Part shown: one piece after another, positions 1-5,409 of the stretch
How positions within the stretch are numbered: the stretch's first letter is position 1
How the letters are laid out: each line of letters starts with the position of its first letter
NCBI GenBank assembly: GCA_016793775.1
Contig: JAEULK010000011.1
Coordinates: 2,686 to 66,685 of the forward strand
Length of the DNA: 64,000 nucleotides
Source: Sphingopyxis sp.
GTDB taxonomy: Bacteria; Pseudomonadota; Alphaproteobacteria; Sphingomonadales; Sphingomonadaceae
Direction: 5' to 3'
Translations under genes and position numbers: made by a program
Notes under the pieces: model-generated
The model's database searches: none
Seen by the model: only the letters and a program-made list of their open reading frames with translations
Told to the model about the DNA's origin: nothing

Positions 1-798
1 ATGCGGCAGCGTTTCGGCCTGTCTGGGATATACAACGCGACCTATCGACCGTTCTCGGTCGAACACGCGCCTCTTGGCTTCCTCAAGCGCGCGCGCGGGG
101 GCCTCGGTCCAGATGTGGGGTGCCTTCGCGTCGCCAATGGAGAAAAGCCAAAGGAAGGGAATGCAGGTCACTTCCATCGCGGGAAGCTTGCCAACGTTAG
201 TGACCTCGGCCCTCACATGAGCGCTGATAAAATCGCCATGGGTTTCACTATGCCTCAGTTCGTATCGATCAACATTTACGTTGTTTATCTTCACCCATGG
301 GCGCTGAGCCATGCGCGCAATATCGTTGGACTGAATAACGGCAAGCGCGTTTTTCTCAGCGATTCCCAGCGCATCCCCAGCCCCCTTGGCGGCCTCCTGA
401 GCGATTTCTACCGTTCTTTCAGTCGCCACGGCAGCGCGCTTCGCATACCAGGCGGCGGCAATGGCAGCGCCCATGGTGAAAGCGCCGAGGACGAGGCCGA
501 CGCCACCAAGCACGACTTGCCACCAAGACCAATGGGAACTGTCATAGGCAGCGTCAGCCGCTTTCCACTGGGCGCAAAGATCGGACTTGCGGTCATCGCG
601 GCCACGCTCGCAACCCTCATCTGGGCGCGGGGAAATTGGCTGTTCTGGGGCAGCAGGATCGGTGGGCGCGGCCTTGCTGGTTACGGCCTTGGCAGCTTGG
701 GGATTTTCGCTCTGAGCGCCGCCCTGTTTGCTTGGGCTAGCCCCTACTAAGGCTAGTCCCGCAACACCAATGAGGATGCACCTATAGCCTCTAAGCAT
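1..798 (-). CDS. Membrane-anchored hypothetical protein, 3'-truncated by the window edge (absent from the ORF track)
   Basis: Hand translation from ATG at 798 is open to base 1: MLRGYRCILIGVAGLALVGASP (signal-like)...DLCAQWKAADAA...WSWWQVVLGGVGLVLGAFTMGAAIAAAWYA (TM)...QRPWV...VTNVGKLPAMEV. The track's 1..750 + ORF is its antisense shadow. Confidence 0.75.
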   Translation of the reverse strand, partial: MLRGYRCILIGVAGLALVGASPSKQGGAQSENPQAAKAVTSKAAPTDPAAPEQPISPRPDEGCERGRDDRKSDLCAQWKAADAAYDSSHWSWWQVVLGGVGLVLGAFTMGAAIAAAWYAKRAAVATERTVEIAQEAAKGAGDALGIAEKNALAVIQSNDIARMAQRPWVKINNVNVDRYELRHSETHGDFISAHVRAEVTNVGKLPAMEVTCIPFLWLFSIGDAKAPHIWTEAPARALEEAKRRVFDRERSIGRVVYPRQAETLPH

Positions 799-992
799 TG
801 CAGCATGAACGCCGCTGAGAAGCCGCCCCGGCTGATCTTGTTGTTAAGGTTCCGCTCGTTCTCTGTGACGCCAACCGACGCCAGCTTTTCCGCAAGCTGC
901 GCATAGGTAACCCCCCGCCTTTTCAGCTCGCCTTTTAACAAGTTTTTGGCGCGAGTCTCATACTCAACGGTGGCAGGATCGGCCTTCGCCAT
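753..992 (-). CDS. DUF6471-like small HTH transcriptional regulator
   Basis: 79 aa, LLKGELKRRGVTYAQLAEKL...NLNNKISRGGFSAAF. XRE-like HTH, divergent from the transposase. Confidence 0.8.
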   Translation of the reverse strand: MAKADPATVEYETRAKNLLKGELKRRGVTYAQLAEKLASVGVTENERNLNNKISRGGFSAAFMLQCLEAIGASSLVLRD

Positions 993-1005
993 ATCAGCAT
1001 CCTTT

Positions 1006-1025
1006 TATCATCAAAAATGATGATA
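1006..1025. promoter_or_regulatory. Putative operator in the repressor/transposase divergent promoter
   Basis: Perfect inverted repeat TATCATCA-AAAA-TGATGATA, 13 bp from the HTH start; TTGACT at 1033-1038. Confidence 0.6.
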
Positions 1026-1085
1026 TAGACCCTTGACTTTGGTTATGTCTACCCTCATATCCGGTGCACAACATCACTGGATACG

Positions 1086-2060
1086 ATGACAATGACCACC
1101 AAAGGCCAACATTTCCTCCTCTCTGCCAAGGCTCGCACTCTGAGCCTCAAGGCTGTTTTCACCATGGGCGAAGAGGGCGCCTACAAGACGTTCTGCCAGA
1201 TGCGCTGGCCTGAGACGGACGGCGAGGCTGTGTGCCCGCGCTGCGGCTGTGTCGAAACCTACGACATTGCCACCCGCCGCAAGTTCAAGTGCGTTGCCTG
1301 TCACCACCAGTTCTCGGTCACCAGCGGCACGATCTTCGCCAGCCGCAAGCTGGGCTTCGTCGATCTTCTCGCCGCAATCGTCATCTTCGTGAACGGCGCC
1401 AAGGGCATTGCTGCCCTGCAACTGAGCCGCGATCTAGATTGCCAGTACAAGACCGCCTTCGTGCTTACCCACAAGCTGCGCGAAGCAATGGCGCGTGAGC
1501 AGATGGGTCGCCAGCTCGACGGCATTGTCGAAATCGACGGCGCCTATTTCGGCGGCTACGTGAAGCCGGAAAACCACAAGGACGACCGCAAGGACCGCCG
1601 TCTGGTCGCCAACCGTTCGGGCAAGCGCCAGTGCGTCGTCGTGATGCGCGAGCGCGGCGGTAAGTCGCTTCCCTTCGTCGTCGCCAACGAAGGCGACGCC
1701 GTTCCTTACGTCCGCGATCATGTCGCCAACCTTGCCGTTCTCCACGCCGACGAAGGCACCGGCTGGGATGCCCTCCACGCCGGTTGGATGACTGAGCGCG
1801 TCAATCACTCGGTCCAGTTCTTCGACAAGGGTGCATGCACCAATCAGGCCGAAAGCTATTTCAGCCGCCTTCGCCGGATGGAAGTCGGCACCCACCACCA
1901 TATCGCCGGTCCGTACATCGGCGCCTATGCCCGCGAAGCTTCATGGCGCGAAGATAACCGCCGCGTATCGAACGGCGATCAGGCTGCGATGGTAACGGCC
2001 GCGGCGATGGCCTCGCGCGTCAGCCGGGACTGGAAGGGCTACTGGCAGCGAACCAACTAA
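1086..2060 (+). CDS. IS1595-family DDE transposase with N-terminal Zn ribbon
   Basis: CPRCG...FKCVAC Zn ribbon, SVTSGTIF, EIDGAYFGG, ADE, NQAESYFSRLRR, YAREASWR; reading frame intact. Confidence 0.95.
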   Translation: MTMTTKGQHFLLSAKARTLSLKAVFTMGEEGAYKTFCQMRWPETDGEAVCPRCGCVETYDIATRRKFKCVACHHQFSVTSGTIFASRKLGFVDLLAAIVIFVNGAKGIAALQLSRDLDCQYKTAFVLTHKLREAMAREQMGRQLDGIVEIDGAYFGGYVKPENHKDDRKDRRLVANRSGKRQCVVVMRERGGKSLPFVVANEGDAVPYVRDHVANLAVLHADEGTGWDALHAGWMTERVNHSVQFFDKGACTNQAESYFSRLRRMEVGTHHHIAGPYIGAYAREASWREDNRRVSNGDQAAMVTAAAMASRVSRDWKGYWQRTN

Positions 2061-2455
2061 GAACAAGCGCCGAACACCATGGGAATCCGGGACACATAAA
2101 GCAGACCTTATATGCGCCTGTGCATAACGTGGTGTGCAAAATATGCTCTAAAATGCCCTCAGAGGGCACAGGAAGCGCGTTAACCAAGCGGAGTACTCCT
2201 CTTGGCATTTTTGCGATTGTCGCATCCACAGGGCTTTAAAACCGAAAATTTGGCACTCTCTTGCGACAAGTGCTTGCCTCTAAACCTGAACGGCCCTAAA
2301 CAGCAAAAGGCCCCGGACGGTGGAAACGTCCGAGGCCTCGAGAGCCCCGCGCTGGTGGCGGGGGATTTGCTATAGCGAGGGGGTTTTATACCCCGGGGAT
2401 AGCAAGGTCAACTGCCACCACGCGCATCAGAAGCGTTTTAATGGTGGAGTTCGAC

Positions 2456-2728
2456 ATGGCTACATACAACGTCACGATCTTGTGCGGCGCGTGCAAGTGC
2501 CCAGCGCAAACCGTCGCTAATCCGAAACCTCATGACAAGGTGACCTGTCCCAGGTGCAACCGAAGCGACCGTTTCGATAACGTCCATCGGACGGTGGGCG
2601 AGCATGTCCAATATGAGACTGCCCGCGCCCTCAATGAAAGCATGGCCCGCGCCACTCGCGGCAGCCGCTTCGTTAAGTTCAAGCCAAAGCACCTCCCCCA
2701 GCGGTCGTTCCGCTGGATTGCCGGCTAG
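2456..2728 (+). CDS. Small Zn-ribbon protein (90 aa)
   Basis: CGAC...CPRC pairs; GGTGGAG SD at 2443-2449 supports the ATG at 2456. Confidence 0.65.
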   Translation: MATYNVTILCGACKCPAQTVANPKPHDKVTCPRCNRSDRFDNVHRTVGEHVQYETARALNESMARATRGSRFVKFKPKHLPQRSFRWIAG

Positions 2729-2783
2729 AGCGATATTGAGTTTCTGAGTTTTCATTCGCCCAATCGGAAAGGGGGTGATTTCA

Positions 2784-2918
2784 TTGGCAAACAAGACCCA
2801 CGAACGTGGACGGGACGCTGGTAGCGGCCAGTTCATTCCCGTCCACGTCGCAGAACGTCGTCCTAAGACGACGGTGGTTGAGACCTATAAGGTCGGCAAG
2901 AAGGGACCGAAGAATTAA
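2784..2918 (+). CDS. 44-aa basic hypothetical protein (below the ORF-track cutoff)
   Basis: SD AAAGGGGGTGAT then TTG: MANKTHERGRDAGSGQFIPVHVAERRPKTTVVETYKVGKKGPKN, stop TAA, followed by a hairpin. Confidence 0.7.
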   Translation: MANKTHERGRDAGSGQFIPVHVAERRPKTTVVETYKVGKKGPKN

Positions 2919-2932
2919 TCGGTCCTAATATG

Positions 2933-2962
2933 GGTCGCCGGGGCTGCACGGTCCCGGCGACC
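2933..2962. terminator. Hairpin between convergent cargo units
   Basis: GGTCGCCGGG-N10-CCCGGCGACC, a 10-bp perfect stem; no clear U-tract. Confidence 0.55.
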
Positions 2963-2964
2963 AA

Positions 2965-3129
2965 TCAGGGACGAATGTTTGCGAGGCAATCCGCTGGCGG
3001 TTTTGATGCGGCCTTTTTGCGGTCCACGGACATCGACACGCCTTCGGCCTGACGATACTCGTATCGAGGCATCTTCAGATCAAAGACGACCTTAGGCCGT
3101 GCGTTCGCCCCGCTGCTCTTTTTAGACAT
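2965..3129 (-). CDS. 54-aa basic hypothetical protein coupled to the Ntn hydrolase
   Basis: GGAGG SD then ATG overlapping the last codons of the upstream gene; MSKKSSGANARPKVVFDLKMPRYEY. Confidence 0.5.
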   Translation of the reverse strand: MSKKSSGANARPKVVFDLKMPRYEYRQAEGVSMSVDRKKAASKPPADCLANIRP

Positions 3130-3970
3130 AATCTGCCTCCAAGGGGTTAAGCTTTCGATCAAAGTGATGCTTCCGTTTTATCCACTTAAAACCTTCGTGT
3201 TTCGTTACGACGCAAATGTCGGTTTCACCGCCGACGGTGTCAGCGCCGGGTAGGAAACGCACGTATGCCTTCGTTGTTTCAACCAAGAAATTTGCGAGCG
3301 CAATCGCGTCCTGTACAGGCATCGCGGGCGATATCAACGGGGCTCTGGTCCGACTTTCTATGTGGGTCAGCACCGCGTCTAAGTTTTCTGGCAACAATCC
3401 AATGTCTAAGAGCGCGTTCGGCAAAAATTGGCTGTAGCCGTTTACGATGCGGTTGATCGCTTCGGGTTGGCCGTCATAGAGGATATCAAATTCGTCCTTC
3501 CCCGCGAGGCATTCCGGCTCTGAGCACTCGCCATTCACGATCTGAATGCGCCATATTTCGCCGTGCATTTCCTTCGCGCAATTGCCCGCGATCCAGAACT
3601 GAAATTCGCTTTGCGGCTTGTCTTCCAGCTTCTGAAAATGCTCCTCAAAGAAGAACGTCCGCGCACGGTTGGCCACCTGTTCGATGGTGTAGTTTTTCGG
3701 GTCGATATGCCATTCGTCGTCTTCCGCGGTGAATCTCGCCCGAAGATCCTTGGCCAGCGTGCTAATGGAGATCGGACCGATGTTCCCCATGCCACACGTC
3801 ATCGCGGCAATTGGAAGACCCTTGCGCAGGTTGAACACCTTATTGCCGTGGGAATAGACATTGGCGATCAAGGGGCGGCCATCATCCAGCGAGGATTCAA
3901 TGAGTGATGACGCGCTATCGGCAGCAAACACGATACAGTCGTGTACTTTGACCGCGACGCAAACCGTCAT
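3122..3970 (-). CDS. Proteasome beta/HslV-like Ntn-hydrolase fold protein
   Basis: N-terminus M-TVCVAVKVHDCIVFAADS matches the Thr1...AAD pattern; GNKVF Lys; C-terminal DTVGGETDICVV; SD GAGGGGG. Confidence 0.7.
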   Translation of the reverse strand: MTVCVAVKVHDCIVFAADSASSLIESSLDDGRPLIANVYSHGNKVFNLRKGLPIAAMTCGMGNIGPISISTLAKDLRARFTAEDDEWHIDPKNYTIEQVANRARTFFFEEHFQKLEDKPQSEFQFWIAGNCAKEMHGEIWRIQIVNGECSEPECLAGKDEFDILYDGQPEAINRIVNGYSQFLPNALLDIGLLPENLDAVLTHIESRTRAPLISPAMPVQDAIALANFLVETTKAYVRFLPGADTVGGETDICVVTKHEGFKWIKRKHHFDRKLNPLEADYV

Positions 3971-4032
3971 AAATCCCCCTCACCGCCGATGAATCATAGT
4001 GTGCCGTTCATGTCAATCACTCGCGACGGCAA

Positions 4033-4467
4033 CTAACGTACCAGCTCCCATTCAAGATATTGACCGCCGCGAGTTTCAACGTTGCGAACCAATGATTGAT
4101 CGCGACGATCACGAAGGCACGTTGAGACGCGCTTGGTCATCAACCCGAGCAACTTGGGGGTCGCGGTCAATCCGCGCTGTACGATCATCTGAGCGGCAAT
4201 CTCACGCGACGTAAGCGGCTTGTTCGCAACGCGCATGATCGACAGGACGACGCGGGACATTTCGCCGCGCTTCGACCAGTCGTCGGGCGGGCGGACGAAC
4301 TTGGGGGCAATGGCGGGAATATCCAGATCGGGCGCGACCAGCTTTATCGCGGCGTCGAGCGTTTCCAGATCGCGCGCCATCTGAGCCAGCGCGTCCTGTG
4401 TCCGCGTCATCTCGCCCGCCAGTTCCGCGCGGCGCTTCACCAGCCCTGTCACCATGTAATCTGTCAT
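4033..4467 (-). CDS. Coiled-coil plus winged-helix hypothetical protein at the transposon end
   Basis: N-terminal heptads (LVKRRAELAGEM...LETLDAAIKL); C-terminal wHTH-like RVVLSIMR...PLTSREIA...LEWEL; starts 67 bp inside the terminus. Confidence 0.8.
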   Translation of the reverse strand: MTDYMVTGLVKRRAELAGEMTRTQDALAQMARDLETLDAAIKLVAPDLDIPAIAPKFVRPPDDWSKRGEMSRVVLSIMRVANKPLTSREIAAQMIVQRGLTATPKLLGLMTKRVSTCLRDRRDQSLVRNVETRGGQYLEWELVR

Positions 4468-4469
4468 GG

Positions 4470-4534
4470 TGCTACATTACGAAAAGTTCACTAGACAGGG
4501 CAGATGGTCGTTGGTGCGTTTGCTACATAATGCC
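4470..4534 (-). repeat. Transposon terminal sequence with subterminal repeat
   Basis: TGCTACATAA (4521-4530) and TGCTACATTA (4470-4479) are direct repeats 51 bp apart; terminus GGCATTATGTAGC on the - strand. Confidence 0.75.
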
Positions 4535-5260
4535 GAGCGCCTCGCCGGGATCGAGGTCGGGCAAGATGCCGGGCAGGCACGCCGCCATCAGCGACTTGCC
4601 CGCGCCGGGCGGGCCGACCATCAGCAGATTATGCCCGCCCGCCGCGGCGATTTCGAGCGCGCGCTTGGCGACCTCCTGCCCCTTGACCTGCGCGAGGTCG
4701 GCCATGCGGCGCGGCTCCTCGACCTCACCGGGGCGCGGCGGGGCGAGCAGTGCGCGGCCCTTGAAATGGTTGAGCAGCGAGAGGAGGTCGGGCGCCGCGA
4801 GCACCTCGACATTGCCCGCCCACGCCGCCTCAGGCCCCTGCGCGACGGGGCAGATCAGCCCGCGATCCTGGCTGCCCGCGTGAAGCGCCGCGAGCAGCAC
4901 CCCGGGCGAGGCGGCGACGCGGCCGTCGAGGCCGAGCTCGCCGACGACCACATAGGCGCCGATCGTTTCGGCATCGATGACGCCCATCGCGCCGAGCAGC
5001 GCCAGCGCGATGGGCAGGTCGTAGTGCGATCCCTCCTTGGGCAGGTCGGCGGGCGACAGGTTGACGGTGATGACCTTGGGCGGGAGCGACAGGCCGATCG
5101 CGGCGATCGCGGCGCGGACGCGCTCGCGGCTTTCGCCGACCGCCTTGTCGGGCAGGCCGACGACGACGAAGCGCGGCACGCCGGGGGTGATCTGGCACTG
5201 CACCTCGACCCCGCGCGCTTCGAGGCCGAGATAGGCGACGGTGGACACGATCGCGACCAT
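4535..5260 (-). pseudogene. comM: 5' half (242 codons) of comM/yifB Mg-chelatase-like AAA+ ATPase, interrupted
   Basis: GLPDKAVGESRERVRAA, VNLSPADLPKEGSHYDLPIA, VKGQEVAKRALEIAAAGGHNLLMVGPPGAGKS. After LDPGEAL it reads into the element (GIM-stop). Full ComM is about twice this length. Confidence 0.95.
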
Positions 5261-5409
5261 GGATATCCCCCAAAGCGGACCCCAAAACGGACGATGTGCC
5301 CGGTTTGTTCTCATGCCCTTTTAGGGCAAAGTCGCGCGAAGGCGAGTCTTTTCGGATGTTGGCGAAGGTGCCGCGCAGCGTGACGTTTGGGGCAAGCCCG
5401 ATTGTCGAT

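Follow-up and report, generated by a model that had tools for sequence, protein, structure and literature searches.

The question raised by the first part of a 64-kb stretch of DNA from a Sphingopyxis sp. contig (hereafter the window; G000:C53:2686-66685 in contig coordinates) is what the small protein encoded beside the end of a transposon does for that transposon. A transposon of the IS1595 family, 4,825 bp in length (C53:2396-7220), sits here between two pieces of comM, and the gene nearest to its right end encodes a protein of 144 amino acids, hereafter called P0001. From a comparison of about 130 related elements, P0001 is probably a sequence-specific DNA-binding accessory protein of cargo-carrying IS1595 transposons, which would act as a swappable target-site selector for a one-protein DDE transposase. 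Positions are given in window coordinates unless preceded by C53, which marks those of the contig, and compared loci are given by their L numbers. The features at the right end of the element and at its junctions with comM are the following:

4033-4467, minus strand: P0001 gene (144 amino acids, ATG start), identified as an open reading frame (ORF) with its translation; the proposed target selector
4511-4535: right terminal inverted repeat, 25 bp, 25/25 complementary to the left repeat
C53:2396-2420: left terminal inverted repeat, 266-290 bases before the start of the window
4536-4543 and C53:2388-2395: target-site duplication of 8 bp, AGCGCCTC (GAGGCGCT in the comM sense direction, codons E-A-L)
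4523-5314, minus strand: N-terminal fragment of comM, with the ChlI domain and the start of the Mg_chelatase domain including Walker A (PF13541, PF01078, TIGR00368)
C53:1922-2401, upstream of the window: C-terminal fragment of comM

Read on the minus strand, comM extends from about 5314 to 4536, where it is broken by the transposon, and its N-terminal fragment terminates at a TAG within the inverted repeat (...E-A-L-G-I-M-stop). Three positions in comM are distinguished below: site 1, the E-A/M-L codons just before E-V-S-M-I, 17 codons after Walker A; site 2, the Walker B codons L-D-E-L-P-E-F; and site 3, about 45 codons upstream of site 1. Perfect 8-bp duplications at identical comM codons (site 1) were found in 24 complete elements, including that of the window. 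The end carrying P0001 points toward the N-terminal comM fragment in 11 of these and toward the C-terminal fragment in 13. One element lies at site 3 (L084), with a perfect 8-bp duplication CCGTCTCC (transposase 45%, P0001 30% identical).

The position in comM follows the phylogeny of P0001. A tree of the P0001 family built with IQ-TREE placed 30 site-1 and no site-2 elements in clade A, and five site-2 and no site-1 elements in clade B (support 97/70). A metagenome scan seeded with a four-sequence clade-B alignment gave 80 loci, in which all junctions abutting comM were at comM residues 319-327 (site 2) and none at site 1; at least 23 of these junctions were identified by a match to the repeat, in both orientations, and about 12 more by a match to comM. 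In the combined tree, all 30 comM insertions of clade A (support 97) were at site 1 and all 23 of clade B (support 89) at site 2. The transposase tree, by comparison, interleaves the sites. With 13 site-2 transposases added it requires six site changes, of which four fall on well-supported branches, and the transposase of L101 (site 2) nests in the site-1 clade of L011 and L013. Forcing the clade-B-linked transposases into one clade cost 154 log-likelihood units (approximately unbiased (AU) test, p = 1.4e-8, for a clade-B group that was named after the trees had been seen). The third conserved gene of the element, which encodes a DUF6471 protein, does not track the site either, the copy of the window being 81% identical to that of a site-2 element. 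On the sequences compared, P0001 is thus the only conserved part that predicts where in comM an element sits. The suggestion of the initial annotation that this protein could supply comM recognition has thereby gained comparative support, as the insertion position follows the P0001 clade and not the transposase or DUF6471 trees.

P0001 belongs to no Pfam or NCBIfam family (Pfam at E ≤ 0.01). Its homologues retain residues 2-4 (T-D-Y), even those without Met at residue 5, and the first ATG is therefore the start of the protein. The family comprises 278 clusters at the level of single-sequence searches and 1,918 at the profile level (clusters of 90% identity), none of the approximately 1,900 clusters carries a precomputed Pfam domain, and the named members are from Alphaproteobacteria. 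The AlphaFold2 model of P0001 (mean predicted local distance difference test score, pLDDT, 80) has a long N-terminal helix (residues 2-44) joined by a linker to a winged helix (residues 69-142). The latter has the three helices followed by a beta hairpin wing that are typical of a winged helix-turn-helix (helices 69-80, 87-97 and 104-123; strands 127-129 and 139-142; pLDDT 84-92). The coiled-coil and winged-helix protein that had been proposed from the sequence at first agrees with this prediction. With Foldseek against the PDB the model matched only generic winged-helix regulators (MarR, Fur, PadR, TFE; probability 0.98-1.0, E about 0.01), and a profile search of the PDB returned only a designed coiled coil and a weak match to the BlaI-like repressor 2g9w (sequence E 0.6). 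The predicted fold of residues 69-142 is thus similar to that of the BlaI/MecI, MarR, PadR and Fur repressors as a generic likeness only, whereas the 44-residue N-terminal helix and the DWSKRGEM arm are particular to the P0001 family. The linker bears the clade-A motif PPxDWSKRGEM, and directly before the winged helix the motif switches from DWSKRGEM in clade A to HxAFKGEV in clade B. The label HARE-HTH (PF05066), which UniRef gives to one homologue, was discarded, since P0001 has no Pfam match at E ≤ 0.01 and none occurs among the family clusters. An assignment to the TniQ/TnsD or TnsF type was likewise discarded, there being no match in Pfam or NCBIfam and the predicted fold being a simple helix and winged helix.

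Several observations, in addition to the late naming of the clade-B group in the AU test, weigh against P0001 as a target selector. Only four to six independent module swaps can be counted on the transposase tree, and a sign test was not significant because the independent pairs were too few. Of 44 elements that belong to clade A or clade B, seven are inserted outside comM, at unrelated locations. No target gene is shared among these insertions, which are flanked by beta-lactamase-like, MatE, glycosyltransferase and unknown genes; among them, L068 is a second, almost identical copy within a genome in which comM site 2 is already filled (L069). The deep-branching relatives (L071, L075, L077-L080, L085) have no common target. 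Conservation of the DNA around site 1 is limited to codon-constrained positions, and the sequence within the duplication varies. Finally, the predicted recognition helix (KRVxxCLR) is largely common to clades A and B, and specificity would therefore have to sit in the arm, in the wing or at the start of the helix.

P0001 is a fixed component of this widespread element family. In a scan with P0001 of one genome per species, which gave 39 loci, an IS1595 transposase was found within 7 kb of the P0001 homologue in 31 and a DUF6471 gene in 30, and most of the remaining loci were cut by contig ends or degenerate. The layout is constant: inverted repeat, P0001, cargo, the transposase gene (tnp) on the opposite strand, DUF6471, cargo, inverted repeat. 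Only P0001, tnp and DUF6471 are conserved, any other ORF of the element in the window being present in at most four loci. A search with the transposase in 400 genomes of the same class as that of the window, about 4% of which carry a related transposase, added 19 further elements. In six of these P0001 was missed by tblastn, and a hidden Markov model (HMM) of the family found a diverged homologue in each, usually beside an end; with this HMM a P0001 homologue was found in every complete element examined. The idea that elements without P0001 avoid comM was accordingly wrong, as the elements concerned had the diverged homologues. In the plasmid collection only two distant homologues were found, both from Skermanella, and one of the records annotates an IS1595 family transposase under the match. 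The proposal that the protein is core transposition machinery rather than cargo, for which co-occurrence of its family with IS1595 transposases and split comM was named as a check, is supported by its presence in every complete element beside variable cargo slots, by the 31 of 39 loci in which a transposase is near and by the position of most copies in comM. The finding named at the outset as refuting this, a family equally common away from IS1595 elements, was not obtained, since the family is essentially not found away from such elements.

At about 50 loci the elements end in the inverted repeat of the window element (0-6 mismatches), which remains nearly identical between the clades while the identity of P0001 falls to about 30-33%, which argues against a specificity of P0001 for the ends. 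Some arrangements depart from the common layout. Four clade-B elements on metagenome contigs (L133, L141, L147, L131) have two P0001-family genes, one beside an end and one beyond tnp. A 2.5-kb element outside comM (L031:6916-9419) lacks a transposase and may be a non-autonomous derivative; it has the repeats of the family, a duplication of 8 bp and a homologue of P0001.

From the right end inward, the gene order in the window is the 144-amino-acid gene, cargo, tnp, the divergent DUF6471 gene and a second stretch of cargo, which extends beyond the edge of the window. The features other than P0001 are the following:

2061-4032: variable cargo slot between tnp and P0001, with a 282-amino-acid ORF (3122-3970, minus strand) and a 132-amino-acid ORF (2438-2836, minus strand)
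1086-2060, plus strand: IS1595-family DDE transposase, 324 amino acids, with an N-terminal zinc ribbon (PF12762, PF12760, NF033547)
993-1085: divergent control region upstream of tnp, with the palindrome TATCATCA-AAAA-TGATGATA (1006-1025) followed by TTGACT (1034-1039)
753-992, minus strand, divergent from tnp: DUF6471 protein, 79 amino acids, helix-turn-helix-like (PF20075, 6e-32)
1-752: second variable cargo slot, from DUF6471 to the left end, with an ORF of about 300 amino acids on the minus strand that leaves the window; found in only 4 of the 39 loci

The transposase has both the catalytic domain (PF12762, 122.9 bits against a cut-off of 27, 1.5e-35) and the zinc ribbon (PF12760, 51.5 bits against 25.4, 1e-13) of the IS1595 family, and it matched NF033547 with 143 bits (cut-off 75, 1.1e-41). 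The 25/25 repeat and the presence of AGCGCCTC on both sides agree with the inverted repeats and 8-bp duplication of that family. Neither the 282- and 132-amino-acid cargo ORFs nor the ORF of about 300 amino acids matched a family in Pfam; the 282-amino-acid ORF is absent from the relatives, and the 132-amino-acid ORF is shared with L012 only.

A different role for P0001, which we hold to be unlikely, would be that of a transcriptional or transpositional regulator like InsA of IS1, binding its own promoter or the end of the element and holding transposition down, with target choice residing in the transposase. The IS1 family is thought to be related to IS1595, and its InsA is a small DNA-binding protein, encoded beside an end, that binds the inverted repeats and represses. 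P0001 is likewise a small element-encoded protein with its gene beside an end, and its predicted fold resembles those of the MarR, Fur, PadR and BlaI repressors. The region between end and gene also seemed to favour this role. The terminal core of the element, TTATGTAGCA, lies at 4521-4530 on the minus strand, and the copy noticed at first, ending 2 nt before the ATG, is indeed present as a 9/10 match:

4470-4479, minus strand: TAATGTAGCA, the second terminal-core copy; the ATG comes after an intervening CC (2-nt gap)

The initial annotation had the coordinates of the 144-amino-acid gene right and placed its start 67 bp inside a terminus at 4534; the true end is one base further out, at 4535, and the ATG is therefore 68 bp inside it. 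Just two occurrences of ATGTAGCA are found in the 64-kb window, against 0.34 expected, and two or more occurred in 5 of 100 shuffles; a 9/10 match to the core within the 85 nt adjoining the repeat was obtained in 0.3% of shuffles. It is also true of the window that TAATGT stands 6 nt upstream of the ATG and that no Shine-Dalgarno sequence is visible ahead of it, and a scan of 3900-4600 for promoter and terminator consensus sequences found nothing.

The comparison with relatives gives a different picture of this region. Among 58 ends of 29 elements, a copy of the core was found at p ≤ 0.05 in three, which is the level of chance. At the same position Sphingomonadales relatives have TAAGGT, TAATGT or TATGTA, and more distant relatives (Hyphomicrobiales and allied groups) have clear ribosome-binding sites of the GGAG type. 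In several clade-B elements the P0001-family gene lies about 17 bp behind tnp and not beside an end. The copy at 4470-4479 is most likely part of the translation or promoter signals of the gene, and within the ends compared it is specific to this element and no general feature of the family. Because the copy is not conserved, many relatives have an ordinary ribosome-binding site and some have the operon layout, the proposed leaderless transcript, repressed by whatever binds the ends, finds no support. Nor is the supposed wiring of P0001 to the end sequence supported, given a copy that is specific to one element and repeats that are almost identical between clades at about 33% protein identity.

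The same observations tell against the regulator. The repeats do not co-vary with P0001, no Pfam IS1 domains were detected, and an end-binding repressor of the InsA type was rejected on account of the nearly invariant repeats at about 30% protein identity and the lack of conservation of the internal core copy. In the elements with the gene as an operon partner of tnp it lies far from the end, and in the transposase tree the target sites are mixed.

A better candidate for a regulator is DUF6471. The intergenic region between tnp and DUF6471 was compared in the window (993-1085), L005-L030, L069, L072 and L073. It is conserved in the family as a promoter (TTGACA, 17 nt, TATAxA), and at most loci it is flanked on both sides by CATCATATACGATRC repeats. 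The window and L069 have the palindrome in place of these repeats and also share the closest DUF6471 proteins (81% identity), suggesting that regulator and operator swap as paired modules. DUF6471 is likely the regulator of the element, and regulation is more plausibly its function than that of P0001. P0001 may nevertheless have a dual role, as regulator and selector.

Quite improbable, in our judgement, is that P0001 serves as an architectural cofactor in the assembly of the complex of transposase and ends, with the tie between clade and site as a by-product of something else co-inherited at that end. P0001 is universal in the element family and its gene usually adjoins an end, as such a cofactor might, but nothing else that is conserved goes with it. 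Even close relatives that share a target differ in the 45 bp from the repeat to the ATG, the cargo is variable, and elements of the operon type (L086, L092, L094) have moved the gene and still target site 2. The variation of the 45-bp stretch among relatives with the same target was also the ground on which guidance of insertion by RNA or DNA homology from this stretch was rejected, by eye only; no complementarity to the comM flanks was seen in an inspection by eye that was not systematic. That P0001 is mere passenger cargo with a host-directed function unrelated to transposition is hardly credible: it is a small regulator-like protein of no recognised family, but it is present in all complete elements, whereas the true cargo slots vary, and it is essentially confined to these elements.

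For P0001 as the target selector the following mechanism can be proposed. We infer that P0001 binds DNA, dimerises, contacts the transposase and is the cause of site choice. Dimerisation would occur via the long N-terminal helix, and the winged helix, probably with the conserved arm just before it, would recognise conserved comM DNA beside the insertion point. P0001 would then recruit or activate the complex of transposase and ends, and the transposase would make cuts staggered by 8 bp. With two identical ends, the element could enter in either orientation. The clade-A P0001 of the window would send the element to the E-A-L codons, 17 codons beyond Walker A, and its clade-B relatives would send theirs to the Walker B codons (LDELPEF). 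Regulation would come from DUF6471 together with the conserved repeats that surround the tnp promoter.

Some further observations concern the interrupted comM itself. In L016 and L035 a clade-A element at site 1 and a clade-B element at site 2 are found in one comM; in L035 the repeats that face each other and the comM stretch between the two elements seem to be absent, as though a deletion had occurred between the elements. The tip of the repeat, read outward, is ATGCCG, and fused to the duplication it gives an in-frame start for the C-terminal comM fragment (M-P-E-A-L-E-V-S...; window 4530-4543, C53:2388-2401). At site 2 the same in-frame ATG arises from the repeat tip (M-P-E-F...). It arises in either orientation because the two ends are identical, and it is not universal, some relatives having ATA in place of ATG. 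About 50-80 bp inside the left repeat, a stretch (C53:2446-2475) agrees with the right junction (repeat tip and duplicated target) in 16 of 17 positions, and a sense copy of the target octamer comes after it. This stretch is missing in the closest relative (L014) and may be a relic of an earlier junction. The comM of the same genome is broken a second time, about 155 codons after site 1 (C53:75-1950, locus L166). The C-terminal comM fragment stops at C53:1922 and is followed by DNA of 50-55% GC content, compared with about 70%. This lower-GC DNA at the start of the contig encodes a large serine recombinase of 556 amino acids (PF00239, PF07508, PF13408), and it looks like a second, unrelated element using comM.

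Selector-guided site-specific transposition is well known for Tn7-like elements, in which it needs four or five proteins. Separate selector proteins direct the Tn7-like Tn6022 and Tsy elements, and for both, TnsF was shown to bind the Walker B region of comM and to target it (Faure et al. 2023, PMC10293859). The role predicted for P0001 resembles that of TnsD/TniQ and TnsF in that a separate element-encoded DNA-binding protein would lead to a conserved, non-essential host gene; the TnsF elements and the clade-B relatives even use the same comM Walker B motif, which implies convergence by an unrelated protein with an unrelated transposase. The selectors of Tn7-like elements are also modular and are exchanged between transposition cores, as is proposed here for P0001. 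The differences are considerable. The present elements have no TnsA, TnsB or TnsC and no AAA+ adaptor, their core being the single 324-amino-acid IS1595 DDE transposase, and P0001 is a 144-amino-acid protein with a predicted helix and winged helix, not a derivative of TniQ or of a tyrosine recombinase. The present elements insert within the motif that is recognised, in either orientation, and duplicate 8 bp instead of 5 bp.

With the IS1595 insertion sequences the element shares PF12762 and PF12760, inverted repeats, an 8-bp duplication and extra genes inside. Subgroups of IS1595 are reportedly listed by ISfinder as carrying passenger genes, an account said to be that of Siguier et al. in 2009, and we know of no report of an accessory protein or a gene-specific target in classical IS1595 members. 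In contrast to these, two small predicted DNA-binding proteins are conserved here, and most copies lie at one exact comM position. A search of a literature library found no account linking IS1595 to comM, none mentioning DUF6471 and none of this system.

On balance, we lean toward seeing in the P0001 family an undescribed class of very small (about 145 amino acids), exchangeable selectors that would make a single-protein IS1595 DDE transposase site-specific, with clades homing to different comM motifs (that following Walker A, that of Walker B and, some 45 codons upstream of site 1, a third). As judged from comparative data, a new protein family would here carry out selector-guided transposition, which has not been described before for IS1595 elements. 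If this is true, a simple transposase of the cut-and-paste type is aimed by a 144-amino-acid partner, and a swap of the partner re-aims the element within comM. The pair would amount to a two-protein (about 470 amino acids), orientation-free, site-specific DNA insertion system, in which the recruitment of a minimal DDE transposase to its target, the exchange of selector modules and the re-targeting of a compact pair would be testable. The elements add a further, unrelated lineage of mobile elements that knocks out comM. It has been discussed that mobile DNA profits from disabling natural transformation (PMC10293859, PMC11441513), and the knock-out of comM by these elements fits this idea.
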